Virus record (IMG/VR): IMGVR_UViG_3300028388_003891
Coordinates: 5,513-69,512 of that record
Reading direction: 5' to 3' (one strand)
Length of the DNA stretch: 64,000 bases
From: a virus
Taxonomy: Duplodnaviria > Heunggongvirae > Uroviricota > Caudoviricetes
The notes beneath the pieces are model-generated. The model ran no database searches and was not told where the DNA came from. It saw only the letters and a list, made by a program, of their open reading frames with translations. Both the position numbers and the translations under genes were made by a program. Shown here one piece after another: positions 16,165-57,821 of the stretch; the stretch's first letter is position 1, and each line of letters starts with the position of its first letter.

Positions 16165-17607
16165 TCATGCAACCGCATAACGATCGCTCATGATTGTGTC
16201 AAGCATTACAGAATGCGGTGTCAACGTGCCTCCTAGCAACCCTTTAACGACTGCAGGACTTGCACCGCTGACGAGTGCTGCTCCGCTTTCATGCATCGTC
16301 ACAGGAATGTTATTGCCACGATCACACACATTCCACCATACAAGCTGAGGAACCTCGTATCCAGCTTTGCTGAACATCTCACGAGCCATTTCCTGTGCGG
16401 TAAAGTTAGTGCCTCGCCGTTGCACAAAGGGATGATCAAACTGCATATCGCTGATCACCAACAGATGCGTTGGCATGTCCTCTTGCGACAGATTAGCACG
16501 CTTTGCTGCAGTCAGTACTGCCTTAAATGTTTTCTGCAAATCGGTGTTCGCACCCCAGCCTGCAGATTCAACACTCTGCCAGCGCTGTTTCAGCGTTTTG
16601 CCTTTGATTACTTGCATTTGCGGACGCTCACTAAACGTAATGAACTGATCCTTAAAGATCGAAGTATTACGCTCGGCAAGGTACATTGCCAGAGACGTCG
16701 ACACGTCCATCGCTGTAACCGTTCCCGACCCCAGCGTTTGATTCATCGAGCACGACACGTCACAAACAACCATAAATCGAGCGTTGCTGTCGCCAATGTA
16801 ATCAGGCAGCGCTTTCCACTGTGCATCAGCCACTTGTGCATCACCGAGACGCAGTGATTTAACGATGTCGTATGGAAACACAGCACTTGCATTGACCTTG
16901 ACATCAGCATCCCCACGAGACAACTTTGCGCGGTACGAAGCATAGCCATCAGGATCGTGGCGGTAGAACGCTGCCTGGTAACGGGCTGCCGCAACCGACG
17001 GCACATGGCTGTAGGTGATCTGCGACCATTCATTGGCACACATACGCTGCTCGACAGTGTCGGACAGCGGCACAATCAATCTGCGCCACGCTTTTTCGTT
17101 GCGAACACCTGCTGCCTTAATAAGCGGCCGGGCCCCTTTCTTCACTTTACGTGGGGCCCACTTAGCCGCAAGACCATTGCCTTGCTCGATTGCTGTAACC
17201 CACAGCTCTGCTGCAAATGACTCGAGTGGTGTACCGAACGCCGCTTGAAGGTCGTCCCAGCGGCCAACTTCCGGAAGACGCTGTATTAGCGTCTGCGCTA
17301 CCTCTCGTAGCTCGGGGTTTGGTGCACCAGCAAGACCATTGATAATAAGGCGAACCGTTTCACGCTCGCCAGCACCACCACGAATGTCGCGGCCCCACAG
17401 CACAATACGCATTGCGTATTCTGGATTTTCCTGATACGCAGCCATAAACTGCCCAATCAGGTCTTTTCCCCGAGAAGAGCCTATCTGAAAAAACAGATCA
17501 ACGCAATCATTTAGCGAGCTGTGGAACGCTTCCATCCCATTCTCGGTGATCGTTGTGTTGGTCATTTGTGCCGCAAGTTTGCTTACTTGTGTCATAATAA
17601 TCTCCAA
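16165..17607 (-). CDS. vWA-domain protein (tentatively DUF2828; possibly Ro60/TROVE-related)
   Basis: 480 aa. MIDAS-type motif 'VVCDVSCSM' (DxSxS), a helical N-terminal domain and 'GMEAFHSS...DLFFQIG' N-terminus. Minus-strand terminator hairpin at about 16130-16160. Confidence 0.5.
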   Translation of the reverse strand: MEIIMTQVSKLAAQMTNTTITENGMEAFHSSLNDCVDLFFQIGSSRGKDLIGQFMAAYQENPEYAMRIVLWGRDIRGGAGERETVRLIINGLAGAPNPELREVAQTLIQRLPEVGRWDDLQAAFGTPLESFAAELWVTAIEQGNGLAAKWAPRKVKKGARPLIKAAGVRNEKAWRRLIVPLSDTVEQRMCANEWSQITYSHVPSVAAARYQAAFYRHDPDGYASYRAKLSRGDADVKVNASAVFPYDIVKSLRLGDAQVADAQWKALPDYIGDSNARFMVVCDVSCSMNQTLGSGTVTAMDVSTSLAMYLAERNTSIFKDQFITFSERPQMQVIKGKTLKQRWQSVESAGWGANTDLQKTFKAVLTAAKRANLSQEDMPTHLLVISDMQFDHPFVQRRGTNFTAQEMAREMFSKAGYEVPQLVWWNVCDRGNNIPVTMHESGAALVSGASPAVVKGLLGGTLTPHSVMLDTIMSDRYAVA

Positions 17608-28618: not shown

Positions 28619-28947
28619 CCGACCAAAAAGAATTACGAGTTAAACGTGGAGAGTTAAAGATCATTGACGAGCTTCGTGATTATGTAATCGCGACGTACAA
28701 CCAGCACTATCGTACAGAAAATGAAGATGGTGATGAGATCCAAGTACTGGATATTTGGGAAGCACTCGATATGGATATTGCGGCGATGCATTCTAACATC
28801 GTCAAGTATGCCTTTCGTTACGGTCGCAAAAACGGGTACAATCGAAAAGATCTTTTCAAAATACTCCATTACACCGTGCTGTTGATCCACTACAGCGAAC
28901 AACGTGGGTTATTCACTGTAGTGGATCCACAGCTGGAGAGTGTGTAA
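28617..28947 (+). CDS. Hypothetical protein
   Basis: 110 aa. Start at the ATGA overlap with the upstream stop. Confidence 0.3.
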
Positions 28948-29468
28948 TGAGTCTGCGTAATATAGCCCTTTCCACCAATCCAGCAGAGTTGTCTCATACT
29001 GAAGAGGATGATGTTCAGCCAAATGCTGTCGACATACGTCTCGATAAAGTGTGGCAAATTTCCAACGAGACGTTTACCCTCAGTGATAGTCACAAGGGGC
29101 ATCGTGGGTCCGAAGAGCTGTCGTTTACCCGTCATTTCCCCGACCATGAAGGCGAATGGATCGATCTATATCCAGGCAGCTATGAGTTTACCGCTAGAGG
29201 TACTGTGCTAGTTCCGCCTGGGTTCGCTGGGTGGGTAGTTACTCGAAGCACACTGAACCGTAATGGTGTCTTCATAACATCCGGCCTGTACGATAGCGGC
29301 TATCATGGAGTAATGGCCGGCGTAATACATGTATCTTGCGGTCCCTTTCTGGTTCAGCGAGGAACACGCATTGGTCAGTTTATACTTGTCGACGCTGAAA
29401 CATCTCATCAGTACGATGGCGATTACGGTTTGGGTAAAAAGCACGATGATAAGTACACGACTGCGTAG
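28947..29468 (+). CDS. dCTP deaminase / dUTPase-fold protein
   Basis: 'QPNAVDIRLD', 'VPPGFAGWVVTRSTLNRNGV', 'SGLYDSGYHG' and 'RIGQFIL' blocks characteristic of the Dcd/Dut beta-barrel. Its TAG stop (29466-29468) lies inside the following tRNA. Confidence 0.6.
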   Translation: MSLRNIALSTNPAELSHTEEDDVQPNAVDIRLDKVWQISNETFTLSDSHKGHRGSEELSFTRHFPDHEGEWIDLYPGSYEFTARGTVLVPPGFAGWVVTRSTLNRNGVFITSGLYDSGYHGVMAGVIHVSCGPFLVQRGTRIGQFILVDAETSHQYDGDYGLGKKHDDKYTTA

Positions 29469-29535
29469 CACAATCTGGTAGTGCGCTGAACTCTAAATTC
29501 ATGAGATAACGGTTCAAATCCGTTCGCAGTCACCA
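29459..29535 (+). tRNA. tRNA with anticodon CUA (amber-suppressor-like), CCA encoded
   Basis: Acceptor GACUGCG/CGCAGUC, D arm GCAC-AAUCUGGUA-GUGC, anticodon arm CUGAA-CUCUAAA-UUCAU (C27.U43 mismatch), T arm AACGG-UUCAAAU-CCGUU, A73-CCA. Confidence 0.5.
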
Positions 29536-29576
29536 TATATACACCGCAATGACTAATGACTTTAAGGGAAACAAAC

Positions 29577-30173
29577 ATGATTGATTTAGTATGTGTTCTG
29601 GACCGTTCAGGTTCAATGTATGCTGACGCTGCAAAGGTGATCAGCTCGTTCAATGAGTTTATCGCGATGCAGCGCGGACGGATGCTAACACGCCCCGACC
29701 TTATGCGTGTTACGCTAGTGCTGTTCGATAATCAATACGAGGTGGTGTACAAAAGCATTCCCATTGATGCTGTCCCCGAACTGACATCAGCTGTGTACAA
29801 CACACGAGGTATGACCGCACTCAATGATGCCGTTGGCAAGACGATTAACGAGCTACGTGACAACGAGAACGTCTTTATGTACATCGAGACCGACGGCCAC
29901 GAAAATAGTTCCAAAGAGTTTAATGGCGACCAAATCAAAACCATGATTAGGGATGCGGAACGCCGTGGATGGGAGTTTATGTTCACCGGTGCCGATTTAA
30001 CCAAACAACAAACACTCGACATGGCCAGCTCGTACGGGATCAAATCGTCGAACACCATCTCGATCAATAAAACGTCGGATGGGTACGCCACTCGCAACGC
30101 CCTGTTCTCTACTGCTGTATCTTCGTATGTGGACGATGTTACTAGCAAGTCGAGTTCTACAGAGACAATCTAA
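29577..30173 (+). CDS. vWA-domain protein
   Basis: N-terminal MIDAS 'CVLDRSGSM' (DxSxS). Rossmann-like alternating pattern. Confidence 0.6.
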   Translation: MIDLVCVLDRSGSMYADAAKVISSFNEFIAMQRGRMLTRPDLMRVTLVLFDNQYEVVYKSIPIDAVPELTSAVYNTRGMTALNDAVGKTINELRDNENVFMYIETDGHENSSKEFNGDQIKTMIRDAERRGWEFMFTGADLTKQQTLDMASSYGIKSSNTISINKTSDGYATRNALFSTAVSSYVDDVTSKSSSTETI

Positions 30174-30289
30174 AGTCGGAGACAAAAATGTCCACTGAAG
30201 GCATGTAGGTATTCAAACCTCCATAACAGTAACTCTTTTACGGCACACTAACATAACAATGTTTACTGTTTCAAAAGAGAGTTACTATT

Positions 30290-30799
30290 ATGAAAACCAA
30301 CCTAATCAAACTGAAAGTCAAGTCAAAGAGTCTTGCCGAAGAGGCTCGTATAATTCGCAAAGAGGAACGCAAGGCGCTTAATCGCTTTAACAACGTCCAT
30401 GCAACTAAAGAGCCAAACCGCGACTATTGGGAATGGACGACACAAGAGCAGCAGGCTTACAACGCTTACGCCTCATTGCACACACACCGCACAGATGACG
30501 TAAGACGTGAATCACGTGCAACCCATCTGGCGATAGCGTTCCTTAAAGGTAGAACATACCGGTCTGTAGAACGCAATTCTAAAGACGATTACGACAAACA
30601 GAGAGCCTTGCTGCGTGCAGCGAAGATTGCGTTCAAGTACATATGGAACGACCATCCTAGCTACCAGCTATTTAAACAGCAACATGCGAGGCAAATGCAA
30701 GCGGTGCCTCGTACGCCAAGAGAAGAGTACGCACGCAAAAATATCAGAGTAACTGCAAATTTACAATATGAGATCTTCCGGAAATGGTCGGAAGAATAA
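30290..30799 (+). CDS. Hypothetical basic/helical protein
   Basis: 169 aa with RBS AGAGTT...ATG. No family recognised. Confidence 0.3.
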   Translation: MKTNLIKLKVKSKSLAEEARIIRKEERKALNRFNNVHATKEPNRDYWEWTTQEQQAYNAYASLHTHRTDDVRRESRATHLAIAFLKGRTYRSVERNSKDDYDKQRALLRAAKIAFKYIWNDHPSYQLFKQQHARQMQAVPRTPREEYARKNIRVTANLQYEIFRKWSEE

Positions 30800-31089
30800 A
30801 TACGAGCAGTTGAACAACTACCCACCTCGATTTTAGACATTGGAACCAGAGTCCCAATGACGGACAAACCAGTCGCGGCACAGGCGATCAATATTGTTGT
30901 AGAACTGCGTGAAGCTCGAGATCATGAACTGAAACGATTGACTCGTCGCCAGTTGCAAAGTATCATTGATAAAGAAACTGCCCGACAAACACAGCGGAGG
31001 ACTACATCTGATGGCTATTGGCGAAGATCGTGATCCAATCTATGGAATAGTGTACGCATCTTGTACGCTAGTGATTGGCGGCCCGATTC

Positions 31090-31457
31090 TTGCATTTGCT
31101 GGTGGGGCGTTCCATTAACGAAATTCGATGAAGCACAACGAACGGTGCTAAGGACGGGGGTTCGATTCCCCCCACCTCCACCAAAAAGCATACTCTTCCC
31201 GCGAAAGCGGTGCGATGGAAGTCGTCATAATCAACCAAGGGAGTATGCTTTTTGATGGGGGTGCACTGGCTTCGACTTGGACTTAATAGCTTGTGTGGAG
31301 AATAGGTGCGGAAGCTACCTTAAACGCAACAAAGTAAAAAAGTGACGCAGCTAATGATGCTGTGTATGATGTGGCTCTAGCAGCCTGATCATACTGGGGA
31401 TTGACTATCCTTATTATCCAATAAGTCCGGGCAGGTTAAACCTGCCCGTTTTAGTTT
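31090..31457 (+). ncRNA. ssrA: Two-piece (circularly permuted) tmRNA gene: acceptor piece first, coding piece second
   Basis: Acceptor piece ends ...GGACGGGGGUUCGAUUCCCCC-CACCUCC-A-CCA at 31174. The coding piece starts at 31257 with GGGGGUG, which pairs with CACCUCC. The coding-piece head GGGGGUGCACUGGCUUCGAC resembles the tmRNA 5' head GGGGCUGAUUCUGGAUUCGAC. An in-frame tag ORF GCA GCU AAU GAU GCU GUG UAU GAU GUG GCU CUA GCA GCC UGA (31348-31388) encodes AANDAVYDVALAA. The 82-nt intervening segment forms a 13-bp hairpin. Terminator at 31427-31456. Confidence 0.75.
31427..31456 (+). terminator. Rho-independent terminator closing the tmRNA coding piece
   Basis: CCGGGCAGG-TTAAA-CCTGCCCG hairpin followed by a TTTTAGTTTT run. 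Confidence 0.65.
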
Positions 31458-31553
31458 TCTAATTGTAAACGGCCCCTTCTGTTGAATTACGTTTGATAGA
31501 TACGTGACTGTATGGTTGCTGAAAAACAGCAATCCTTTGAAATGGAGATCATT

Positions 31554-32504
31554 ATGAAACAAGTGTTTCGCTCAATTGCGATAGCTACCGCAATCGCATT
31601 AACCGCCGCGTGTGGTGCCAAGGTGGAAGTGCCGCCTGCTCACGTTGGCAAAGTCCTTACCCGAAACGGCTTTGCGCCGGAAACTCTCGCCCCAAGCAAA
31701 TTCCGCCTCGAGCCGTGCATAGCGTACTGTGACAAGCTAGTTTTGCTGCAGGCTAATGACGCGCCATTCCATGAGAAAATGGAAGTGTTCATGCCTGAAG
31801 ACAAACTGAATCTTAGTGTTGAGGTTCGTGGCACGATGTCGATCATGTCGAATAACAGCCGTACAATCGATTCACTATATGATCGCATTACTGCTGTGCC
31901 AACGGACGACAATGATGTCAATGTCATAACCGCAGAATTGATATATCGTACATACGGGCAACCGACCCTACGTGGTGTTGTGCGCAATAAGATTGCGGAA
32001 TACACAATTGCTGATGTGATGGCCAACCGTGAAGCGCTTGCTCAGACTATTCACGACGCCATTGTTGATAGGATGGAAGCTACCAGCACTCCATTAATGT
32101 TTTCGCGCTTTGAGCTTGCTGACATCCAGCCGCCTCTAGTGATTATCGAGGCACAAGTTACCGCGAAAAAACGTGAGATCGACATCATGACGGCCAACGC
32201 CGACGCCGAGGTCAAAATGGTGGAAGCAGAGCGCGACCTCGAGATAGCTCAGAAACGACGTCTTGTAGAGCGTGAAAAAGCAGAGGCAATTGCTGAGCAA
32301 AACCAGATCGCGGCCGCTTCAATTACCCCACAGCTACTCGAATATCGACGTCTCGAAGTACAAGAGCGCGTGTTTACACAACTTGCTAACGGTACCAACG
32401 AAGGTCTAATGATCGTGCCGATTGACACTAACAGCATCAACTCGACCACTGAGGGTGCTGTGTTTGGACGTGTCGCTGGCAAGCAAATCGCTAGCGCTAA
32501 GTAA
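31554..32504 (+). CDS. SPFH/band-7 (prohibitin/stomatin-like) domain lipoprotein
   Basis: Lipobox 'ALTAAC' after a signal peptide, an SPFH-like core and a C-terminal charged coiled coil (EIDIMTANADAEVKMVEAERDLEIAQKRRLVEREKAEAIAEQ). Start taken at the Met with a GGAG RBS. Confidence 0.55.
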   Translation: MKQVFRSIAIATAIALTAACGAKVEVPPAHVGKVLTRNGFAPETLAPSKFRLEPCIAYCDKLVLLQANDAPFHEKMEVFMPEDKLNLSVEVRGTMSIMSNNSRTIDSLYDRITAVPTDDNDVNVITAELIYRTYGQPTLRGVVRNKIAEYTIADVMANREALAQTIHDAIVDRMEATSTPLMFSRFELADIQPPLVIIEAQVTAKKREIDIMTANADAEVKMVEAERDLEIAQKRRLVEREKAEAIAEQNQIAAASITPQLLEYRRLEVQERVFTQLANGTNEGLMIVPIDTNSINSTTEGAVFGRVAGKQIASAK

Positions 32505-32515
32505 CGGAGGCAGCT

Positions 32516-32920
32516 ATGAACTGGGACCTTAATTTTGGCAACATCGCGTTTGGACTGATACCTTGGGTATCGCTGGTAGCGTCAGCTACGATCGCTCACT
32601 TGATGTTTGTAGGTTTTTGCAAGCACACAAAATTCGTTGACGATGAATCGTTTTTGGTTTATCACAAATTGATAACGAAAATAGCACCTGTGTTTTTTAT
32701 TGGCACACTTGCGATTGCAGTGCTGCTGTCTGTTCAAACGTACGGTCCCAGAGCAACCCTTAATGCAGTACCATACAACTACAATCCCGAGCCAGCAGAG
32801 ATAGTTCCATCCGAGAACTCGATCACAGGTCGCAGAGATGATGCACCAGATTGGCGTGGTAGGTTTGAAGACAGGCTTGCTGAGCCACCTGTAACAATCA
32901 AAAAGCAAGACGACCAGTAG
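32516..32920 (+). CDS. Small two-TM membrane protein adjacent to the SPFH gene (NfeD-like partner?)
   Basis: Two hydrophobic segments then a soluble tail. Immediately downstream of the SPFH protein. Confidence 0.35.
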   Translation: MNWDLNFGNIAFGLIPWVSLVASATIAHLMFVGFCKHTKFVDDESFLVYHKLITKIAPVFFIGTLAIAVLLSVQTYGPRATLNAVPYNYNPEPAEIVPSENSITGRRDDAPDWRGRFEDRLAEPPVTIKKQDDQ

Positions 32921-32928
32921 GATAAAGC

Positions 32929-33600
32929 ATGCAACTAACCGATCAGGATATTAAAATTCTAACTAACTTTGCATCGATCCAGCCCAATATTGTATTGGGG
33001 CCTGGATCGTCTGTTTTAACGCTTGCAGAAGGTCACCATATAGCAGCGGCAGCTGAACTGAGCCAAGAGATACCTCGTGAGTCGCCTATATACGACCTCG
33101 GGGAATTCCTGCAAGCTGTGTCGCTGCTCGAAGAGCCTTCATTTCGATTCACCGACAAAGCTATAGTGATGAGTGGTGGAGGTAGTCAGGTTCGATATTT
33201 CCTCACAGACAAAGAGATGCTGACATTTCCTCCAAGGGAACCACTAGTTGCGCCAACAGACGGTGTGTTGATCCACTTGTCTGATGAGACTCTGACGGCA
33301 ATCAGAAAAGCATGCTCAGCCTTGAAACATGATGTGATGACGATCGCCAGTCAGGACCAACGTGCTGTTATAACAGTTAGCGATCCAACGATCGATACTA
33401 GCAATGCGTGGGCCACACAGGTAGATATCGAGCGGAACAGCTTTAGTTCTTTTTCAGCGGTGTTCTCCGTTGCAAACATGAAACTGATTCGTGGAAGCTA
33501 TGACGTTCAAATAACACCACACATCTACAAATTCACTAATACCCAAGAGCCGGTGCGCTATTACATGGCACCACATCGACTGTCCACCTTTACGGAGTAA
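32929..33600 (+). CDS. Sliding clamp gp45
   Basis: 'LTNFASIQPNIVLGPGSSVLTLA' parallels T4 'LKNFATINSGIMLKSGQFIMTRA'. 'IYDLGEFLQAVSLLEE' parallels 'IYDLNGFLGILSLVND'. 'ANMKLIRGSYDV' parallels 'ANMKMQPGNYKL'. Confidence 0.8.
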   Translation: MQLTDQDIKILTNFASIQPNIVLGPGSSVLTLAEGHHIAAAAELSQEIPRESPIYDLGEFLQAVSLLEEPSFRFTDKAIVMSGGGSQVRYFLTDKEMLTFPPREPLVAPTDGVLIHLSDETLTAIRKACSALKHDVMTIASQDQRAVITVSDPTIDTSNAWATQVDIERNSFSSFSAVFSVANMKLIRGSYDVQITPHIYKFTNTQEPVRYYMAPHRLSTFTE

Positions 33601-50275: not shown

Positions 50276-50361
50276 CGCGGGATATACAAGCGGTCAACGT
50301 GATAGGGCTCATAACCCTATACCTTAGTGTTTCGTGGGTTCGAATCCCACTCCCGCAACCA
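50276..50361 (+). tRNA. tRNA-fMet-like (anticodon CAU), initiator features, unusual 14-nt variable region
   Basis: C1.A72 mismatch (CGCGGGA/UCCCGCA), anticodon stem with three G-C pairs (UAGGG-CUCAUAA-CCCUA), T arm GUGGG-UUCGAAU-CCCAC, A73-CCA. Confidence 0.55.
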
Positions 50362-50991
50362 AATTAACAGGCTGCCTTTCACATAGCCTGTTTTGACCGG
50401 CCCCTGTTTTTCCTCCTCCTTTTCGCAGGGGCCGGTCACCCTCTCCCCCGTTGCCCTCAATCTGACATTAAGAGATAATGTCTATGTTGAATTGAGGAGG
50501 CACCAATGAGCAAATACATTGTTTTCCAAATCGAAGTGACCCGCGCCATGGCCGACAAGATCGAGGTGTGATCGACATCAGAGAGTCGATAATGCCGACC
50601 CACGTCACACTGGCGATTGAAGACGGCCGCCTGATGGTCGTCGACGGCAGTGGGTATGACTTCATCATTGAGGAAGAAGATGAAACACAATCCAGTAGCT
50701 AAACACGCACACAAGTTCAACAAATGCGCCAAGCATGTTGACCGTAAGGCGCGTTCTAAGCGAGGATATCGCAAACACAGGAGAATTGATAATGGGTGTT
50801 GAGAACACAAATGTGGATACCAAAGAGCTCATGGTCGAGATTGATCTTGAACTTGGATCACTTGCGGCGCGGATCGCAACCGGCCTAACGTACAGCGAAA
50901 TCGTCGCGTTCGTTGAAATGATTGATAGCGAGGTATCCGACACCGAGTTTACGGACCAACTGATTAACGCCGTCCTACGCCTCAATGATTA

Positions 50992-51045
50992 ACTGCCCTG
51001 ATGAGTCTTACAGGAGACGAAACGCGCTGATAGCGCGTCGGCAGA
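50992..51045 (+). ncRNA. Hammerhead ribozyme 2 (type I); cleaves between 51039 and 51040, exactly at the tRNA-Tyr 5' end
   Basis: AACUGCC-CUGAUGA-GUCU[UACAGG]AGAC-GAAA-CGCGC[UGAUA]GCGCG-UC^GGCAGAG. Stem I is formed by the upstream CUGCC and the tRNA 5' acceptor strand GGCAG. Confidence 0.75.
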
Positions 51046-51121
51046 GTACACCCGTAACTGGTAGCGGCCCGCACTGTAACTGCGCATAACGTTGGGGGTT
51101 CGAATCCCTCCTCTGCCACCA
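51040..51121 (+). tRNA. tRNA (anticodon GUA, Tyr-type) with short variable region
   Basis: Acceptor GGCAGAG/CUCUGCC-A-CCA, anticodon arm (C)CGCA-CUGUAAC-UGCG(C), T arm GGGGG-UUCGAAU-CCCUC. D arm poorly paired. Confidence 0.55.
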
Positions 51122-51136
51122 AATTGAAAGGAGTTT

Positions 51137-51499
51137 GTGATGAATAAACGCTTCACGATTATCGCTGCGATAGTGATAGGCATCGGTAGTTTGTTTACTC
51201 TTTACGAAGGGGTCAAAGCTATCCGGCAGTATGCGTGGAACCATGAGGTTGTTGACGCTCGTCCCGTCGGTCCCGTTCGCACTGAGCAACGATTGATCGA
51301 ATGTGAGTATACAGGAATATGCTCTCGCTTTGATCCGCTGAACGGCGAGATGAGAACGGGGTTATCATCCTTTTGTCGCGGTCACCGTCCGGTCGTTGCT
51401 CGCATACAAGATGTGCAAGAGACGCTTCGTAACGGCGAGCAACGAATTCGAGAAGAGATAATGAGTCGCACAATCGTCGAGGGCGTAGCATGCAGATGA
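51137..51499 (+). CDS. Hypothetical membrane-anchored protein
   Basis: 120 aa with N-terminal TM helix. RBS AAAGGAG. Confidence 0.35.
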   Translation: MMNKRFTIIAAIVIGIGSLFTLYEGVKAIRQYAWNHEVVDARPVGPVRTEQRLIECEYTGICSRFDPLNGEMRTGLSSFCRGHRPVVARIQDVQETLRNGEQRIREEIMSRTIVEGVACR

Positions 51500-51533
51500 G
51501 CAAAGACGTAACCAAAGAGATTCTCAAAACGAA

Positions 51534-51607
51534 AGGGGATTAGCATAACGGTAGTGCGTCGGACTCTGACTCCGAATGTGGTGGTTCAATTCCACCATCC
51601 CCCGCCA
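51534..51607 (+). tRNA. tRNA-Gln (CUG)
   Basis: Anticodon arm UCGGA-CUCUGAC-UCCGA, T arm GGUGG-UUCAAUU-CCACC, acceptor AGGGGAU/AUCCCCC (A1.C72), G73-CCA. Confidence 0.6.
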
Positions 51608-51612
51608 ACAAA

Positions 51613-51688
51613 GCAGCTTTAGCAATGATGGTTCATGCGCTGGCCTGAAGTCCCAGATATCTCGGTTCGATCCCGAGGAGCTGCACCA
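51613..51688 (+). tRNA. tRNA-Phe (GAA)
   Basis: Acceptor GCAGCUU/GAGCUGC, anticodon loop CUGAAGU with C31.C39 mismatch, T arm CUCGG-UUCGAUC-CCGAG, A73-CCA. Confidence 0.55.
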
Positions 51689-51708
51689 AACAACAAAGGC
51701 GATGAGCA

Positions 51709-51969
51709 ATGTATGCAGTTCCCGAACGGTTTGATGTCCAGGCGCTTGGACGCACGATTACAGTGGTCTCCACGGCGAAGCCAGAAGATGGCGTGTATCA
51801 ATTGTGCGTAGAGATAGATGGCGAAATGGTACAGCTCGATACCTCGGTGCGAATAGAAGGACAGGAACTCTCATATATGATTCACGAGGAGGGGTATCAC
51901 GACATCTTGTTCCGTCTGGTTGCAGACGCAATTGAAGAACAGATGGGCCGTTCAGAAGCAAACAGCTAA
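51709..51969 (+). CDS. Hypothetical acidic protein
   Basis: 86 aa. Stop abuts tRNA 51971. Confidence 0.35.
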   Translation: MYAVPERFDVQALGRTITVVSTAKPEDGVYQLCVEIDGEMVQLDTSVRIEGQELSYMIHEEGYHDILFRLVADAIEEQMGRSEANS

Positions 51970-51970
51970 A

Positions 51971-52048
51971 GCGCCTGTAGCCCAATCAGGTAGAGGCAGC
52001 GGCTTTAAACCCCGTTCAGTGTGGGTTCGATCCCCTCCAGGCGCACCA
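51971..52048 (+). tRNA. tRNA with Leu anticodon UAA but class-I architecture (5-nt variable loop)
   Basis: Acceptor GCGCCUG/CAGGCGC, D stem GCC/GGC, anticodon arm GCGG(C)-UUUAAAC-(C)CCGU, T arm GUGGG-UUCGAUC-CCCUC, A73-CCA. Confidence 0.5.
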
Positions 52049-52082
52049 ACATCGGTTGACGACAACACGCTGGTAAGGGACA

Positions 52083-52301
52083 ATGAGTCTTTTGGAGGAT
52101 AAAACAATGGGTGAACGAACAATTCCTGCTCCAACAGAGCATCACTTCAGCTTTGCGACGGCAGTGGTCGATAATATGGTTCGCAACTGTGGAATCACAA
52201 GCTCCGGCGAAGACATCGATAAACTTAAAGACGCGATGGTTTCGTGCATTGCCCACCGTGACGCAGAGATCCTGTGGCTGCGCAAACTGGTGCATCCGTG
52301 A
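52083..52301 (+). CDS. Hypothetical protein
   Basis: 72 aa with RBS GGAGGA. Confidence 0.35.
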   Translation: MSLLEDKTMGERTIPAPTEHHFSFATAVVDNMVRNCGITSSGEDIDKLKDAMVSCIAHRDAEILWLRKLVHP

Positions 52302-52603
52302 TGTTGTACACTCCAGATAGATGGGTGTTGCTGGAAATCGAGCCGTACAAGTTGTACAAAGTGCTGGCGGGGTGGAATGGTGGTTATCTTTCGGCGGACG
52401 AATGGCGGATCAACTCCGGCATTAAAAGTCTGACCGATGAAGGCCAATATTTCACAGCAACAGGACACAGCGGCAGTGAATACCGTTTGTACAAGGATGC
52501 AGAGGGGTTCAATAAGATCAGCGCAGATGTGCTGTACAACCTCCAGAATGCTTATCCCCATATCGTCACTGTTTCTGCTGAACAATATTTTACGCGGGTG
52601 TAG
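52302..52603 (+). CDS. Hypothetical protein (start at the Met following the upstream stop)
   Basis: 100 aa. Ends with a TAG inside tRNA-Gly. Confidence 0.35.
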
Positions 52604-52669
52604 CTCAGTTGGTAGAGCATCTGGTTGCCAATCAGAAGGCCGTGGGATCGTGACCCATCACCCGCTCCA
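52594..52669 (+). tRNA. tRNA-Gly (GCC) with non-canonical T loop AUCGUGA
   Basis: Acceptor GCGGGUG/CACCCGC, D arm GCUC-AGUUGGUA-GAGC, anticodon arm UCUGG-UUGCCAA-UCAGA, U73-CCA. Overlaps the TAG stop of the upstream ORF. Confidence 0.65.
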
Positions 52670-52803
52670 AATTCTTGAATATGGAATGAGGAGAACTTAG
52701 TGAACAAACTTCGTAATCCGTACGATTCAAGGCAAGCGCCATCTGGGCGCGAATCTAAACAAAACGAACAACCCAGCCCATACGACGCGAGTGGTGTTCG
52801 TCG

Positions 52804-53100
52804 TTGGCTCGAACGGAAAACGAGGCGAAAACATCAAAAGTGAGATTGCTAATTTTTGCAGCGGTGCTGCTTTGTACAGCCTGCTCGACTACGCCGCCAG
52901 GAGTGACAAAACAGTGCGTACGTTACGAGTACAACAACGACTGGGAAATTGTTCAAATGGGCGGCTTCTACAGAGTAAAAGCGCCTCAGATGATATGCCG
53001 AAAATGGATGTATTATGAAAGTAGCAGTGACCGGTACGCGCCACGGAATGACTCGTCCACAAAGACAAATGGTGATGTCGACGATCCACCAGTAGACTGA
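52804..53100 (+). CDS. Small lipoprotein
   Basis: Signal peptide with lipobox 'LLCTAC'. Confidence 0.4.
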   Translation: MARTENEAKTSKVRLLIFAAVLLCTACSTTPPGVTKQCVRYEYNNDWEIVQMGGFYRVKAPQMICRKWMYYESSSDRYAPRNDSSTKTNGDVDDPPVD

Positions 53101-53101
53101 G

Positions 53102-53470
53102 TTGCATCAAGGATGCTGCAAAGGCGTTGATCGCGAATGCTACCTAATGGCAGCAGACAATCCAGACTACGACATAACGATTTACTCGTACCCACCAATT
53201 AATGATCACTATGCGATCAAGTGCCTCGGTCATGTCAATTACAAGCCACAGCCGTTCCTTGTACGCGATCGTGCTCTGGTAGATGCGGCGGATATTCTGC
53301 TATCGATGCCACTTACTGATTACGAGACATTTCGCAGTGGTACATGGTACACTACACGCTATGCTCTGCAGCAGGACAAGCCTGTCGTACTGATTCAACC
53401 TAACGGCACTAGTGTGCCTGCTGATGAAATTGAGAGATACTTACTACCTGGAAAATGGGGTGAAAGGTAA
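53102..53470 (+). CDS. Hypothetical protein (nucleoside 2-deoxyribosyltransferase-like fold?)
   Basis: 'ALVDAADILLSMP...TWYTTRYALQQDKPVVLI'. Weak call. Confidence 0.25.
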   Translation: MHQGCCKGVDRECYLMAADNPDYDITIYSYPPINDHYAIKCLGHVNYKPQPFLVRDRALVDAADILLSMPLTDYETFRSGTWYTTRYALQQDKPVVLIQPNGTSVPADEIERYLLPGKWGER

Positions 53471-54435
53471 TGGAATTCATCAAATACAGCTCGATTGAGA
53501 ATCACTACCGTGAGAAGGTTGTCGACTGGTATCGTGAAAATGGATTAGAAAACGTCGGATGGATCTTGACGGAGAAGATCCATGGCGCTAACTTTTCTTT
53601 CTGGTGCAACAGCAGCGAAGTCAAGGTCGCATCTCGTAACCAATGGGTCGACAGCACATTCTATAGCTGTCAGGACATCATCGACGCGTACACGCCCGTT
53701 GTGCTAGAGCTCGCTACTTTCTTCCCCAACAGCACTGTAGCTGTGTATGGGGAGCTGTACGGACCCGGTATTCAGAAGGGGGTCAATTACGGCGACAAAA
53801 AAGATTTCGTTGCCTTCGACATTCGAGTTGACGGATACTTCCTAGATCGTAATAAAGTACATGTGTACATCGCTGGTGCAAACCAGCTGACATTACAAAA
53901 GCACGGTCAGAGGTCCACCTTGATGGACGTTGTCCCTATTGTTGGCTCGACAGTGTCACTAACACAAGTGCTTGAGTTTGATAACGAGTTTGTATCTGTG
54001 CTTGGCCGTCTCAATGGTGTCGACGACGATGCCAACCTTGCTGAGGGATTCATTGCAACGCCAGTCGGCAAAGCGTACCAACGCATTGGCAGCGACCGTG
54101 TGATCCTCAAATCGAAAGGTGAAAAGTGGACAGAGAAAAGCAAGAAGGTAAAGACGCCTCGTGCTCCTGTTACTGAGCACCCACTGACATCAACGGTTGA
54201 GCAGTATGTCAACACCAACCGTGTCGATGCTGTCACAAGTAAGATGGGCCCGTTGACTCCAAAGGACTTTGGTCGGATCATTAGGGCTGTTTGTGATGAT
54301 GTCATTGATGACATGGTGAAGGACGGTGATGTTCGTAGCTGCTGGCGCGATGACGAAGAGACGAAAGACCTTGGCAAGGTTGTTAACAAAGTGGTAGTGC
54401 CTTTCCTCAAGAAAGAGCTGCTACCGACGTTGTAA
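53470..54435 (+). CDS. RNA ligase, Rnl2 family
   Basis: Nucleotidyltransferase motif I 'TEKIHGANF' (compare T4 Rnl2 'EKIHGTNF'). 321 aa. Embedded in the tRNA/ribozyme array. Confidence 0.65.
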   Translation: MEFIKYSSIENHYREKVVDWYRENGLENVGWILTEKIHGANFSFWCNSSEVKVASRNQWVDSTFYSCQDIIDAYTPVVLELATFFPNSTVAVYGELYGPGIQKGVNYGDKKDFVAFDIRVDGYFLDRNKVHVYIAGANQLTLQKHGQRSTLMDVVPIVGSTVSLTQVLEFDNEFVSVLGRLNGVDDDANLAEGFIATPVGKAYQRIGSDRVILKSKGEKWTEKSKKVKTPRAPVTEHPLTSTVEQYVNTNRVDAVTSKMGPLTPKDFGRIIRAVCDDVIDDMVKDGDVRSCWRDDEETKDLGKVVNKVVVPFLKKELLPTL

Positions 54436-54452
54436 CACGCTTGGCAGTGTAG

Positions 54453-54497
54453 GCGGGTGAGGAACCACGAACTGGATCCAGTGACCCCGCCGTTTTA
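54453..54497 (+). terminator. Terminator-like hairpin after the RNA ligase gene, leading into a TATAAAT box before tRNA-Glu
   Basis: GGCGGG...CCCGCC stem with an internal CTGGATCCAG palindrome, then GTTTTATAAAT. Confidence 0.4.
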
Positions 54498-54505
54498 TAA
54501 ATTAC

Positions 54506-54582
54506 GTCCCTATAGGTTAACAGGTTAGACCTTCAGGCTTTCAACCTGGCAGAGTGGGGTTCGAGTCCCCCTAGGGACACCA
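54506..54582 (+). tRNA. tRNA-Glu (UUC)
   Basis: Acceptor GUCCCUA/UAGGGAC, anticodon arm UCAGG-CUUUCAA-CCUGG, T loop UUCGAGU, A73-CCA. Confidence 0.7.
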
Positions 54583-54586
54583 AATT

Positions 54587-54686
54587 ACGTGCTTGGTGTA
54601 ATGCGTAGCATACCAAGACCGAACTGCGCGAACGCAGATGTAGGCAATCAAAATGGGAGGTCCAGGTTCGAATCCTGGGGCACGTA
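54587..54686 (+). other. tRNA-like element (about 100 nt) with canonical T arm and 3' acceptor strand but no recognisable anticodon arm; no CCA
   Basis: 5' ACGUGCU pairs with 3' GGCACGU-A. T arm CCAGG-UUCGAAU-CCUGG. Interior consists of two hairpins (CUUGGUGU...ACCAAG and CUGCG-CGAA-CGCAG). Confidence 0.3.
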
Positions 54687-54695
54687 ACTAATAAA

Positions 54696-54772
54696 CTGGG
54701 TATAGGGCAGTCTGGTAGCCTACCTCCCTTGGAAGGAGGATGTCGATGGTTCAAATCCATCTACCCAGACCA
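54696..54772 (+). tRNA. tRNA-Pro (UGG)
   Basis: C1-G72 acceptor CUGGGUA/UACCCAG, anticodon arm CCUCC-CUUGGAA-GGAGG, T arm GAUGG-UUCAAAU-CCAUC, A73-CCA. Confidence 0.75.
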
Positions 54773-54924
54773 ATTTTGGCTTGTACGCAAGCGGTGACGG
54801 AAGCAGCTTGCAGAATGTGTTGAACGTCAGATGTGGGTAATACTAGAATCGCTATCTAGAACTAAGACATAGCCACGATGCCGGAGATCCGTGGGGTGCG
54901 TCGTGGCGGCCAAAATTCAACAGA

Positions 54925-55000
54925 GGTGCCGTAGCTTAACGGGGAAAGGCTCAGACTGTCAATCTGAGAGATACGGGTTCGAGACCCGTCGGTACCGCCA
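54925..55000 (+). tRNA. tRNA-Asp (GUC)
   Basis: Anticodon arm UCAGA-CUGUCAA-UCUGA, T arm ACGGG-UUCGAGA-CCCGU, acceptor GGUGCCG/CGGUACC, G73-CCA. Confidence 0.7.
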
Positions 55001-55018
55001 AACTAAAAGGAGAAGAAA

Positions 55019-55267
55019 ATGGACGACAACCAGTTGTATTCCATCAGTTGTATTAGCTTCTTTTTTACGATATGCGTCATAGCGTTTACAATCGGATCTT
55101 GTAATACCAGAGAAGCAGAGCAGGAAACGGAGAGGTATCGAATCGAAATGGATCGATACGATCCTGGTTCGATTGACTATTTGGAAGCGCAGTGTATCGA
55201 GAAGTCGGGACTCCATGCTTCGATACTTCGGTTCTGTGAAGAAGCGCTGGAGAAAGCAAACGGATAA
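55019..55267 (+). CDS. Small membrane protein inside the tRNA array
   Basis: 82 aa with RBS AAGGAG and one TM helix. Confidence 0.4.
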   Translation: MDDNQLYSISCISFFFTICVIAFTIGSCNTREAEQETERYRIEMDRYDPGSIDYLEAQCIEKSGLHASILRFCEEALEKANG

Positions 55268-55268
55268 T

Positions 55269-55345
55269 GCGCCCCTACGCAAATTGGCAAAGCGGCTGGC
55301 TTTAGAAGCCGGTGTTTCTCGGTTCGAGTCCGAGGGGGCGTACCA
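55269..55345 (+). tRNA. tRNA with Leu anticodon UAG, class-I architecture
   Basis: Acceptor GCGCCCC/GGGGCGU (G1.U72), anticodon arm CUGGC-UUUAGAA-GCCGG, 5-nt variable loop, T arm CUCGG-UUCGAGU-CCGAG, A73-CCA. Confidence 0.5.
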
Positions 55346-55351
55346 AACAAT

Positions 55352-55428
55352 GGGTCGTTAGCTTAATTGAGTAAAGCAGCAGGCTTTTAACCTGCCAGAT
55401 CTGAGTTCGAGTCTCAGGCGGCCTACCA
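55352..55428 (+). tRNA. tRNA-Lys (UUU)
   Basis: D arm GCUU-AAUUGAGUA-AAGC, anticodon arm GCAGG-CUUUUAA-CCUGC, T arm CUGAG-UUCGAGU-CUCAG, A73-CCA. Confidence 0.7.
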
Positions 55429-55568
55429 AATCAATATGGCGCTAACTCGTGCCCCGACCACCAGATCGGACTACAATGCTGGTAGGCACCTAGGCCTATA
55501 CTCGCCCCAGTCGAGTGAACGTGTGACAGTTACGACGACACGACCATAATGGAACTGGGACAAATTCT

Positions 55569-55644
55569 TGGCATGTAGCATTGAAGGTAATGCGCCGCAC
55601 TGTTAATGCGGAGGAATCCGGTTCGATCCCGGACGTGCCAGCCA
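55569..55644 (+). tRNA. tRNA-Asn (GUU)
   Basis: Acceptor UGGCAUG/CGUGCCA, D arm GCAU-UGAAGGUA-AUGC, anticodon arm CCGCA-CUGUUAA-UGCGG, T arm UCCGG-UUCGAUC-CCGGA, G73-CCA. Confidence 0.7.
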
Positions 55645-55910
55645 ATTATGGTCCGTTGCATTGGGATGCATCCCTTTGCTGATAAACGAAGGGGAGTAAG
55701 TCGGGCACGCGACCGACCGGAAGCCGGATATAAAGCTGTCATCTGACATGGTGGCAGTCGGACCGCCATACAATGGGGCGAAGTGACGTAGACGCGCGTT
55801 AAGAACAGCCGATCTGAGCCCCACCATAAATAGGTCAACACACTACAGGTTGACAACATGATAGCTTTCAAGGACCATATTCAAGAATCAAGAACAGCTA
55901 AAGTTTTAAC

Positions 55911-55984
55911 GCCCGGTTAGCTCAATGGGAGAGCTACTGCCTTACAAGCAGAGGACGGTGGTTCGATTCCATCACTGGGTACCA
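55911..55984 (+). tRNA. tRNA-Val (UAC)
   Basis: D arm GCUC-AAUGGGA-GAGC, anticodon arm (A)CUGC-CUUACAA-GCAG(A), T arm GGUGG-UUCGAUU-CCAUC, A73-CCA. Confidence 0.65.
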
Positions 55985-56016
55985 AGAATAGTGGAGGGCT
56001 AATGCCCATCTGCGAG

Positions 56017-56084
56017 CTCCACAACGACTGGCAAATGGCGCTGGGGTGTCCCGGAACGGAGGTTCGATTCCTCCCAGTTCGTAC
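56017..56084 (+). other. Truncated tRNA-like element (acceptor-like stem, one hairpin, canonical T arm), no CCA
   Basis: T arm GGAGG-UUCGAUU-CCUCC followed by CAGUUCG-U. Imperfect 5' partner CGACUGG. Preceded by a GUGGAG...CUCCAC nested hairpin at 55991-56023. Confidence 0.25.
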
Positions 56085-56245
56085 TACAACACCGGTTAGT
56101 GATACGAGTAACGATTAAGTTACAGTTGTGGAGCGGTACTATTAGGAATGGCTACAGCATCTAATTACTACGCAGCCAAAGAAAGCCATTCCGTAACAAT
56201 TAAGAGTGTTTGCAGCAACTAATCTTCCATGCTAAGGACGAGGCC

Positions 56246-56302
56246 GCAGGTTCGAATCCTGCTCCCCGCCATCGACGGTGGGGGTAGCTCAGCGGTAGAG
56301 CG
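56246..56302 (+). other. tRNA half-fragments: T arm plus 3' acceptor (CCUGC-UCCCCGC-C) followed 7 nt later by a tRNA 5' half (GGUGGGGG-UA-GCUC-AGCGGUA-GAGC-GC)
   Basis: The 3' strand UCCCCGC(C) upstream pairs perfectly with GGUGGGG downstream, a permuted or fragmented arrangement. The 5' half resembles tRNA-Ala. Confidence 0.3.
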
Positions 56303-56328
56303 CGTAGAAATACACTCTGTTTATTTTT

Positions 56329-56400
56329 GGGGGTGCCGTATGGGACGGACTTAGCCCTTGCAAGGCTGATGGTCGGGATCGTTACCCGATACCTCCACCA
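56329..56400 (+). tRNA. tRNA-Ala-like (UGC) with G3.U70 but a degenerate D arm; possibly a disrupted gene
   Basis: Acceptor GGGGGUG/UACCUCC (G3.U70), anticodon arm UAGCC-CUUGCAA-GGCUG, T arm UCGGG-AUCGUUA-CCCGA, A73-CCA. Preceded by a U-run and the tRNA 5' half fragment. Confidence 0.4.
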
Positions 56401-56406
56401 AACATT

Positions 56407-56484
56407 CACCGTGTAGCTCAGTCTGGTCAGAGCGTTCGCTTTGGAAGCGTAGGGCCACTGGTTCGAATCCAGTCATGGTGACCA
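56407..56484 (+). tRNA. tRNA-Pro (UGG), second copy with different sequence
   Basis: C1-G72 acceptor CACCGUG/CAUGGUG, D arm GCUC-AGUCUGGUCA-GAGC, anticodon arm UUCGC-UUUGGAA-GCGUA (one mismatch), T arm ACUGG-UUCGAAU-CCAGU, A73-CCA. Confidence 0.55.
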
Positions 56485-56664
56485 AATTGGTTCGTGGACT
56501 ACCGTAAGACGCCTACGTTTAGGTGCCGCGACCCCACGAACAAGTCGTGGGACGACAAGCGCGAATGTGTTATATACTTCACACGGACGGTGGCGTCTGT
56601 TGTTGTGAAAGTCGTTAACTAGCGTTGAGCTGATCACTCTAGTCCCGCGGCGGCGCTATTAAAT

Positions 56665-56740
56665 GGGTCGTTAGCTTAACTGGCAAAGCTCCGGTCTCCA
56701 AAACCGGCAGATCGCGGTTCGAAGCCGTGGCGGCCCGCCA
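56665..56740 (+). tRNA. tRNA-Trp (CCA)
   Basis: Anticodon arm CCGGU-CUCCAAA-ACCGG, D arm GCUU-AACUGGCA-AAGC, T arm CGCGG-UUCGAAG-CCGUG, G73-CCA. Confidence 0.7.
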
Positions 56741-56817
56741 AACAGCTCATAAGGTGAGCAGTTGCGACTGGTACATATTCGCCGCCACGCCATATTTTCT
56801 CTTGCCGGAAGATAAAC

Positions 56818-56893
56818 GCTCCTAAAGCATTGCTGGCCGATGCACGGGTCTTGTAAGCCTGAGAACTCAGTTCGATTCTGAGTAGGAGCACCA
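56818..56893 (+). tRNA. tRNA-Thr (UGU)
   Basis: Acceptor GCUCCUA/UAGGAGC, D arm GCAU-UGCUGGCCG-AUGC, anticodon arm CGGGU-CUUGUAA-GCCUG, T arm CUCAG-UUCGAUU-CUGAG, A73-CCA. Confidence 0.65.
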
Positions 56894-56897
56894 ACAT

Positions 56898-56973
56898 GCC
56901 CTCAAAGCATTGCCGATTGATGCGCGAGTTTCGTAAACTTGATAACTGCGTTTGATTCGCAGTGAGGGCTCCA
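56898..56973 (+). tRNA. tRNA-Thr (CGU)
   Basis: Acceptor GCCCUCA/UGAGGGC, anticodon arm CGAGU-UUCGUAA-ACUUG, T arm CUGCG-UUUGAUU-CGCAG, U73-CCA. Confidence 0.65.
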
Positions 56974-57022
56974 ATTGAGCAACTGCAGAATGTCTGCGGT
57001 GATATACAGGTAGGACGCATAA

Positions 57023-57099
57023 GCCGCAGTGACCCAATTGGCAGAGGTGCCAGTTTCAAAAGCTGGATGTTGTCGGTTCGACTCCGACCTGCGGTACCA
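57023..57099 (+). tRNA. tRNA with Leu anticodon CAA, class-I architecture
   Basis: Acceptor GCCGCAG/CUGCGGU, anticodon arm CCAGU-UUCAAAA-GCUGG, 5-nt variable loop, T arm GUCGG-UUCGACU-CCGAC, A73-CCA. Confidence 0.5.
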
Positions 57100-57184
57100 A
57101 ACTACGACGTCGAGCTCAAGATAACACCGGGGACCGGCGTGTGGGAAGGCTATTTGGAATACGGACTGCTTATAAAATGGTTAT

Positions 57185-57259
57185 AGGGATGTAGCGCAAT
57201 TGGTAGAGCAGCGGAGTTTGATTCCGCAGATTCCGGTTCGAATCCGGACATCCCTTCCA
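57185..57259 (+). tRNA. tRNA-Gln (UUG)
   Basis: Acceptor AGGGAUG/CAUCCCU, anticodon arm GCGGA-GUUUGAU-UCCGC, T arm UCCGG-UUCGAAU-CCGGA, U73-CCA. TATAAAAT box about 15 nt upstream. Confidence 0.65.
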
Positions 57260-57815: not shown

Positions 57816-57821
57816 AACAAT

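Follow-up and report, generated by a model that had tools for sequence, protein, structure and literature searches.

A circularly permuted two-piece tmRNA gene among the replication genes of a T4-like myophage

Genes for transfer-messenger RNA (tmRNA) have been listed from phages since at least 2014 (PMC4131195), and a survey of 2021 counted them in 402 of 18,146 phage genomes (2.3%). Among the 133 unique genes of that survey 53 were of the two-piece kind, and 50 of these 53 came from marine or aquatic samples (PMC9004378). The tmRNA database of 2025 holds 79 phage sequences (PMC11915505), and its permuted tmRNAs number 11,946. In the two-piece kind, tRNA-processing enzymes cleave the precursor made from a circularly permuted gene, and the two resulting pieces are base-paired with each other (PMC11915505). 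Here we describe such a permuted tmRNA (ssrA) gene in the viral record IMGVR_UViG_3300028388_003891; the stretch analyzed, positions 5,513 to 69,512 of that record, is 64,000 nucleotides (nt) long and is called the window. The gene had been recognized by a model working from the sequence alone (the original prediction), which regarded a tmRNA as uncommon in viruses. This is true, but the frequency had already been quantified in the survey cited above, and at least 120 viral contig loci with the tmRNA head motif were found in the present work. Because many two-piece phage tmRNAs have been published, the gene of the window is a new, divergent example of a documented kind.

Several phage systems have been described. 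The two-piece tmRNA of the Methylophilales phage Melnitz was reported to be alphaproteobacterial in type and controlled by a glutamine riboswitch (PMC9004378). The tmRNAs of the mycobacteriophage Bxz1 group and of Bacillus phage G are phage-borne and of ssrA type, but they consist of one piece in unpermuted order (PMC4131195). The mycobacteriophage DS6A carries an ssrA-type RNA that has only the tRNA-like domain (TLD) and no tag frame (PMC4131195). The closest counterparts of the window's tmRNA were those encoded by permuted genes in phages of Xanthomonas and Stenotrophomonas and in at least 120 viral contigs.

Detection and anatomy of the permuted gene

A permuted tmRNA (tmRNA*) was called by ARAGORN at 31091-31479 (+), with the reported tag DAANDAVYDVALAA. 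The Rfam covariance model RF04321 (tmRNA_permuted) matched positions 31123-31388 over the full model (1-213) with 95.2 bits (E 3.4e-17) against a gathering threshold of 47. This score falls within the range of cultured-phage genes, which extends from 76.6 (Xanthomonas phage X1) to 146.8 bits. ARAGORN and a permuted-tmRNA model had been named in the original prediction as a check, and both detected the gene. The two independent detectors agreed, and all elements described in that first reading were present on the + strand, in the order acceptor piece, intervening hairpin and coding piece, which is the layout of permuted ssrA genes. Of the Rfam models made for single clades, RF01850 (beta_tmRNA) fitted best, with an end-to-end alignment at 31076-31451 (E 3e-17).

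The identification as a phage-encoded, circularly permuted two-piece tmRNA gene is thus supported by the ARAGORN call, the RF04321 score and the T4-like myophage surroundings, and the first-pass reading of the sequence had recovered the gene correctly. Judged by its sequence, the RNA probably has tmRNA function. We consider it very likely that a lytic T4-like myophage here carries a functional permuted ssrA gene, whose architecture is the one first known from Betaproteobacteria.

The coordinates of all elements are collected in Table 1. As had been predicted, the head GGGGGUG at 31257 paired with the 3' acceptor strand CACCUCC, at 7 of 7 positions, and the pairs included a G3·U70 of the alanine-acceptor type (G31259·U31177), the lack of which had been named as a reason to reject the gene. 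The D-loop analogue CUGGCUUCGAC at 31266-76 fitted the GG.UUCGAC type of the RF04321 consensus. The CCA had been placed at 31174, nine nt from its actual end at 31183, and the intervening segment is therefore 73 nt long (31184-31256) instead of the 82 nt given before. The 13-bp hairpin ascribed to this segment was essentially right; the exact closing stem has 14 bp within the segment, or 16 bp counting the CCA residues, and stacks on the acceptor stem. The segment folded at -26 kcal/mol. For the precursor stretch 31153-31275, the computed fold (-55.4 kcal/mol, z = -5.35) consisted of the T arm, the acceptor stem and the long closing stem, and none of 200 shuffled sequences folded as well.

For family comparisons, 110 unique viral and metagenomic genes were used, with subsets of 82, 103 or 108 genes depending on the test. 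A 7/7 acceptor stem with G3·U70 was found in all 110 genes. Covariation was analyzed in a block-wise alignment of 82 genes, in which canonical pairs made up 100% in the acceptor stem, 100% in the T arm, 98% in P2a and 97% in P2c, with several pair types at many positions, while register-shifted controls reached a canonical fraction of 0.2-0.8, and of 0.2-0.7 for the P2 helices. The window kept 7/7, 5/5, 5/7 and 4/5 of these pairs, respectively. A further 6-bp helix private to the window, GCACAA/UUGUGU (P2b), had no support from the family alignment and was kept only as possible extra stability; it could compensate for the weak P2a.

The intervening segment was 26-200 nt long in the 110 relatives (median about 75), so that the 73 nt of the window are typical. 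The closing stem averaged 9.9 bp when the strands came from the same gene, as compared with 5.0 bp when strands were swapped between genes (103 relatives, 75 distinct sequences). The closing stem is conserved as a structure across the relatives. On maturation the intervening segment would be removed to leave a two-piece RNA, as the processing stem and the published permuted tmRNAs suggest (PMC11915505).

The tag, the rest of the coding piece and the proposed function

The codons of the tag frame are GAC GCA GCU AAU GAU GCU GUG UAU GAU GUG GCU CUA GCA GCC UGA, encoding (D)AANDAVYDVALAA followed by the stop. The tag is intact and of the proteobacterial ANDxxYALAA type, and it ends in an ...ALAA degron. 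Resumption at GAC 31344 would give the tag DAANDAVYDVALAA, as reported by ARAGORN, and resumption at GCA 31347 would give AANDAVYDVALAA. In the 110 relatives the upstream context was (G/A)UAAA(C/U) directly before GCA, with A(-4) in 109 and U(-5) in 101 of them. GAC 31344 has A(-4) and lacks U(-5), and GCA 31347 has U at -4. The distance from G1 to the tag had its mode at 84-87 nt in the family. GAC 31344 is favoured over GCA 31347 as the resume codon, because A(-4) occurred in 109 of 110 relatives and because GAC 31344 stands at a modal distance from G1 (87 nt). By the same A(-4) rule, X1, the locus L142 and the Stenotrophomonas phage Marzo would resume at GUC. Since the frame and the C-terminal degron do not change with the start, all in-frame options end ...YDVALAA. 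The in-frame tag ending ...VALAA-UGA of the original prediction therefore holds, and its start lies more likely one codon earlier than had been assumed.

Upstream of the tag, the stem-1 hairpin of the candidate PK1 was placed by both RF04321 and RF01850. Downstream, the post-tag pseudoknot carries a loop motif, CCUUAUUAYCCAA, common to 32 of the 110 relatives. With a generic pseudoknot finder, 17 of 300 shuffled sequences equalled the window and spurious solutions were picked; because of this lack of discrimination, a motif-anchored strand-swap test was used instead. Stem 2 averaged 7.5 bp with its own strands vs 3.7 bp with swapped strands (32 genes, 24 distinct stem sequences). From its sequence, the post-tag pseudoknot appears clearly homologous to those of the relatives.

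The terminator that had been noted after the tag was present, as a hairpin followed by UUUU, and likely forms the 3' end of the coding piece. The part 3' of the stop codon comprises about 64 nt, which agrees with the earlier count of about 65 nt. It had been called unusually short, but its length is normal for the beta-type architecture, because RF01850 fits its whole 3' part, one pseudoknot and a terminal hairpin, to 31389-31451.

In about one fifth of 108 relatives, the acceptor piece is preceded by a good promoter whose -10 element lies 14-15 nt away, and some relatives' tmRNA genes stand behind tRNA genes. In the window, the match directly upstream was weak (TTGCAT-17-CATTAA at 31090-31118, 6/12). 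A better sigma-70-like candidate, which might drive the tmRNA, lies farther upstream (Table 1). The spacer upstream of the gene also contains a 7-nt direct repeat, TGTACGC, at 31052-58 and 31062-68 (+), 10 nt apart, which could be a regulatory site or could be due to chance.

Table 1. Predicted elements of the permuted tmRNA gene (window coordinates)
Element	Position	Strand	Sequence or pairing	Remarks
Sigma-70-like promoter candidate	30938-30966	+	TTGACT-17-TATCAT	10/12; some 155 nt upstream of the acceptor piece
Acceptor piece	31123-31183	+		About 61 nt; RF04321 alignment, sequence and covariation; 31123 is the approximate 5' end
P2c (trans-helix)	31300-31303 / 31123-31126	+	GAAU / AUUC	4/5 pairs kept
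P2b (trans-helix, window-private)	31291-31296 / 31133-31138	+	UUGUGU / GCACAA	6 bp
P2a (trans-helix)	31276-31280 / 31148-31152	+	CUUGG / CUAAG	5/7 pairs kept
T arm	31156-31160 / 31168-31172	+	GGGGG / CCCCC	T loop UUCGAUU; matches RF04321 consensus
Acceptor 3' strand	31173-31179	+	CACCUCC	Direct reading
Discriminator (A73)	31180	+	A
Encoded CCA	31181-31183	+	CCA
Intervening segment	31184-31256	+		73 nt; 14-bp closing stem; ends ...UGAU just before G1
Coding piece	31257-31452	+		About 196 nt; acceptor 5' strand, D-loop analogue, P2 strands, PK1, tag, pseudoknot, terminator
Acceptor 5' strand (head)	31257-31263	+	GGGGGUG	G3 = 31259
D-loop analogue	31264-31275	+	CACUGGCUUCGA
Candidate PK1	31304-31327	+		Stem 1 AGGU 31304-31307 / ACCU 31317-31320
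Candidate PK1 stem 2	31308-31310 / 31325-31327	+	GCG / CGC	By eye, from homology with relatives
Tag reading frame	31344-31388	+		No start codon; stop UGA 31386-31388
Post-tag H-type pseudoknot	31396-31427	+		RF01850 alignment, high posterior probability
Post-tag pseudoknot stem 1	31396-31401 / 31407-31412	+	GGGGAU / AUCCUU
Post-tag pseudoknot stem 2	31403-31406 / 31424-31427	+	GACU / AGUC	Conserved loop UAUUAUCCAAU
Intrinsic terminator	31428-31452	+		9-bp G+C-rich hairpin 31428-31448 + UUUU; aligns with RF01850 terminal hairpin; likely 3' end

Several observations weigh against a working tmRNA. No SmpB was found within the 64-kb window by tblastn with an approximate E. coli SmpB query (best E 3.7), and there is no close relative by which purifying selection could be shown (best core identity 68%). 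The RF01850 score, 59.2 bits, is under the gathering cut-off of 84, which is passed by Marzo, the Stenotrophomonas phage DLP_6 and the Pseudomonas phage SM1 (94.6-111 bits); X1 fails it, as does the gene of the window. P2a carries two mismatches, A·G and C·U, at positions that are paired in 95% of the relatives, the candidate PK1 is weak (4 + 3 bp), and pseudoknot stem 2, with 4 bp, is the shortest in the family. The context of the resume codon is atypical, and no convincing promoter was found directly upstream of the gene in a sequence scan. From the RF01850 score onwards, these features, together with a patchy distribution among relatives (none in phage C48C1), would also fit a decaying or non-functional copy, that is, a permuted tmRNA gene acquired from another phage or bacterium and no longer used. 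However, none of the elements known to be essential is damaged: the tRNA-like part retains its acceptor stem (G3·U70 included), A73, CCA, T loop and D-loop analogue, the tag frame is uninterrupted with a canonical degron and stop, and the terminator is intact. The RF04321 score lies inside the cultured-phage range, and the private helix could offset the weak P2a. We therefore regard a decayed copy as improbable.

A further point against the tag as read above is that the literal family motif GUAAAA would place resumption at AAG 31340, with UGA (31343) directly after it. tmRNAs with two-residue tags have been reported (PMC11915505). The RNA might thus have a modified function, either with this minimal tag or as a sponge or competitor for the host SmpB and tmRNA; a TLD-only molecule was reported to inhibit tmRNA (PMC4131195), and a sponge role was proposed for the RNA of mycobacteriophage DS6A. 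However, a perfect degron frame of the family type, 13-14 codons long, stands in the expected place, with GAC 31344 at the modal distance from G1 and with A at -4. A sponge would not need a conserved tag, pseudoknot and terminator. A modified function is accordingly given very little weight here, even less than decay.

For a functional tmRNA, the reading preferred here, the following course can be proposed from established tmRNA biology. A single precursor RNA would end at the terminator, and in its fold the closing stem of the intervening segment would lengthen the 7-bp acceptor stem. The tRNA-processing enzymes would act on this fold, with an RNase P cut 5' of G31257 and trimming to the CCA at 31183, and the intervening hairpin would be discarded. 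The acceptor piece and the coding piece would be held together by the acceptor stem, P2a, P2b and P2c. The host alanyl-tRNA synthetase would charge the RNA via G3·U70 and A73. Since no SmpB was found in the window, the tmRNA would depend on the host SmpB, which together with EF-Tu would deliver it to ribosomes stalled on broken mRNAs. The ribosome would go on to translate the tag frame from its resume codon, most likely GAC 31344, up to the stop UGA 31386. The nascent chain would then end in ...AANDAVYDVALAA, a degron of the ClpXP/SspB type, and would be degraded by host proteases. The phage may benefit because ribosomes are kept free while mRNAs are destroyed during infection, alongside the action of about 29 tRNA genes and an RNA ligase. 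Ribosome availability in infection has been raised as a benefit for Melnitz (PMC9004378) and for huge phages (PMC7162821).

Relatives of the gene and comparison with described tmRNAs

A search for distant DNA relatives led to phages of Xanthomonas, Stenotrophomonas, Pseudomonas and Caulobacter, where the match was limited to the tRNA-like domain; these loci carry permuted tmRNA genes. The tags were (V)AANDADYSVARYA in Xanthomonas phage X1, (V)AANDDSYTVRIAA in the Stenotrophomonas phages Marzo and IME-SM1, ANDDSFAPMAIAA in DLP_6 and ANDTSFDVRLAA in Pseudomonas phage SM1. The gene of Caulobacter phage CcrRogue scored 88.2 bits with RF04321 and received no call from ARAGORN. A permuted-tmRNA call was returned by ARAGORN for 111 of the candidate sequences pooled from the viral contigs and the earlier phage loci. 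ARAGORN also made one-piece tmRNA calls in Marzo (L009, 939-1256) and SM1 (L011, 979-1232), which overlap tRNAs upstream of the real permuted genes and are probably false positives from these neighbouring tRNAs.

The motif of the subfamily in the acceptor piece, AUGAAGC..A.CGAA.GG, was detected in 20 metagenome contigs and, among viral contigs, only in those of Stenotrophomonas phages. It occurred in none of 185,579 bacterial species genomes. A pattern specific to the tmRNA of the window had no match in the metagenome collection, and the identity of the core (head and acceptor piece) to any collected gene was at most 68%.

The Xanthomonadales phages compared were X1 and BUDD, the Menderavirus phages Marzo, IME-SM1, Moby and Mendera, and DLP_6, which include T4-like and jumbo phages. 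With them the window shares the permuted order, the 5' motif of the acceptor piece, the encoded CCA, the closing hairpin with UGAU directly before GGGG, the beta-type post-tag pseudoknot and a T4-like genome (gp44 of DLP_6 is 44% identical). The tags of X1 and Marzo have the same length and pattern (AAND..Y.V...A) as that of the window, with one extra in-frame codon before. However, the tag of the window ends in LAA, while that of X1 ends in RYA and that of Marzo in IAA. Outside the tRNA-like domain, core identity to the Xanthomonadales phages was about 60%, and pseudoknot stem 2 is shorter in the window. The genomic position differs as well, since the gene of Marzo and the beta-type gene of DLP_6 each lie in a tRNA cluster and the gene of the window lies next to the gp45 clamp gene.

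The betaproteobacterial genes of RF01850, such as those of Azonexus and Thauera, share with the window the P2 trans-helices, the T arm, the acceptor stem, the candidate PK1 hairpin and the terminal hairpin. They also have a tag of the ANDxxFAxAA type and a GGGG...CCUU pseudoknot with the loop CCUUAUUACCCAA. In contrast, core identity was 55-57% (Azonexus, Thauera), the window fell short of the RF01850 cut-off as given above, and its tag is 3-4 residues longer than the betaproteobacterial one. The bacterial beta genes read ...ACCC and thus do not encode the last A of the CCA; their intervening segments are 29-50 nt long, as compared with the CCA and the 73-nt hairpin of the window.

The cyanobacterial two-piece tmRNAs (Prochlorococcus, Synechococcus) have the permuted order, the head motif and a pseudoknot loop, CCUUAU.A.CCAA, that is shared between beta-type and cyano-type genes. 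A cyanobacterial type, suggested by this loop, was ruled out by the lower core identity (48-51%), by tags of the type ANKIVSFSRQTAPVAA and by the spacing of 5-9 nt from discriminator to G1 with no encoded CCA. Melnitz resembles the window in having a two-piece tmRNA and in being a related Kyanoviridae-like T4-type myophage (gp44 46.6% identical), but the best clade model for the window is beta, and the two genes are not syntenic, because no tmRNA lies beside gp45/gp44 of Melnitz. A glutamine riboswitch like that of Melnitz was also sought, and Rfam gave no match in or near the tmRNA locus even at E <= 10.

A full CCA was encoded in none of 118 sampled bacterial permuted tmRNA genes (loci L155-L274), among which the Rhodocyclales genes read ACCC and the picocyanobacterial genes had the 5-9 nt spacing mentioned above. 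Nearly all viral and metagenomic genes (L001, L007-L154) had an encoded CCA and a 26-200-nt hairpin ending UGAU directly before GGGG; for most of this set, TGATGGGG had been the selection pattern and only sequences containing TCCACCA had been parsed, so that CCA and UGAU are not independent counts there. The gene of the window has both the encoded CCA and the long intervening hairpin ending UGAU before G1.

One might suppose that the CCA-encoding, long-hairpin, beta-type permuted tmRNAs form a lineage maintained by viruses and moving between lytic phages, rather than copies of host genes. This idea arises because such genes are found in Stenotrophomonas, Xanthomonas and Pseudomonas phages and because the acceptor-piece motif is absent from the bacterial species genomes. 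We hold it as tentative and think it somewhat doubtful. From the taxonomic distribution of tmRNA types, the hosts of these phages are expected to have a one-piece tmRNA (PMC9004378, PMC11915505). If the idea were true, the RNA would serve the phage as a supplement to the host tmRNA or as its replacement. When mRNAs and tRNAs are cleaved by host defences or phage nucleases, it would prevent ribosomes from staying blocked, in concert with the tRNA array and the Rnl2 ligase. With its own tag variant and an unusual resume context, it might send proteins along another route than the host tag does. Two patterns may merit a database-wide test, namely the association of the encoded CCA and long hairpin with viruses, and the occurrence of permuted genes in phages of hosts expected to have one-piece tmRNA.

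The gene alone opens no new question. It adds to the phage two-piece tmRNAs a divergent sequence; the T4-like lineage from which it comes is uncultured and has no close relative in GenBank. Since about 29 tRNA genes, a suppressor tRNA and an RNA ligase accompany the gene in this genome, it would be a reasonable test case for why lytic phages carry ssrA.

The phage genome around the gene

The surrounding DNA is unambiguously that of a T4-like myophage. Pfam matches in the window included the gp18 sheath, gp20 portal and gp23 capsid proteins, UvsW and gp46/47-like proteins, and also the gp43 family-B polymerase, UvsX, a gp41-type helicase, a DNA ligase and Rnl2; gp45 and gp44/62 are encoded as well. 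The tmRNA gene is co-oriented with and embedded among genes for a VWA protein, an SPFH protein, the gp45 clamp and the gp44/62 clamp loader, the last two lying just downstream. About 29 tRNA genes were found in the window, and the 3' CCA was encoded in 27 of 27 checked, as in the tmRNA gene.

These data bear on whether the gene belongs to the phage at all. It could instead stem from a host, as a tmRNA gene on a chimeric contig, or be an attachment-site fragment carried by a temperate element, as tmRNA genes are common integration sites (PMC11915505, PMC4131195). However, the gene is complete with both pieces and stands in the same orientation among T4-like replication genes. Its CCA is encoded as in the phage tRNAs and as in none of the 118 sampled bacterial permuted genes, the acceptor-piece motif is in no scanned bacterial species genome, and no integrase was found among the 30 open reading frames (ORFs) scanned. 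The chance that the gene is not phage-encoded is accordingly very slight.

At the nucleotide level, no relative of the stretch 30000-33000 was found by megablast against 50,697 phage records. The clamp loader matched 2,636 phage records, the best being C48C1 (50%), Melnitz (46.6%), cyanomyophages and DLP_6 (about 44%). A search with gp45 retrieved only three viral contigs at 32-33% identity, none of them with a tmRNA. Phage C48C1 (OQ984149.1), the closest GenBank relative by the clamp loader, has no tmRNA in its whole genome, beside gp45/gp44 or elsewhere, and only seven tRNA genes. The load of translation-related genes differs sharply between related phages, and the tmRNA gene is patchy among them.

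A large array of tRNA genes lies at 50276-60482 (+). One further tRNA, at 51040-51118, was found by Rfam only (40.4 bits) and was missed by ARAGORN. An Rnl2-type RNA ligase (PF09414 with the T4 Rnl2 C-terminal domain) is encoded inside the array at 53470-54435 (+), which suggests a capacity for RNA repair beside the tRNAs and the tmRNA. A tRNA with the anticodon CUA, an amber suppressor, lies apart from the array at 29459-29535 (+); it was labelled 'tRNA-Pyl' by ARAGORN and scored 65.8 bits with the Rfam tRNA model. It starts 10 nt before the TAG stop of a dCTP-deaminase-like ORF at 28947-29468. There is no sign of genome-wide recoding, since TAG, which ends 12 of 79 naive ORFs, otherwise seems to serve as a stop like any other.

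The gene directly after the tmRNA, at 31554-32504 (+), encodes an SPFH/Band-7 lipoprotein. Many homologues at 55-67% identity were found, in a Litoribacillus chromosome and in unrelated phage contigs of the lambdoid type that lack a tmRNA, and the gene is therefore probably a mobile accessory one. A minus-strand ORF at 16165-17595 adjoins the capsid gene and matches DUF7788, DUF2828 and, weakly, a Ro60-type vWA domain; its product may be a Ro/TROVE-like RNA-binding protein. A second VWA protein is encoded at 29556-30173. Collagen triple-helix repeats occur in the protein encoded at 4476-5483 (+), directly behind the portal gene.

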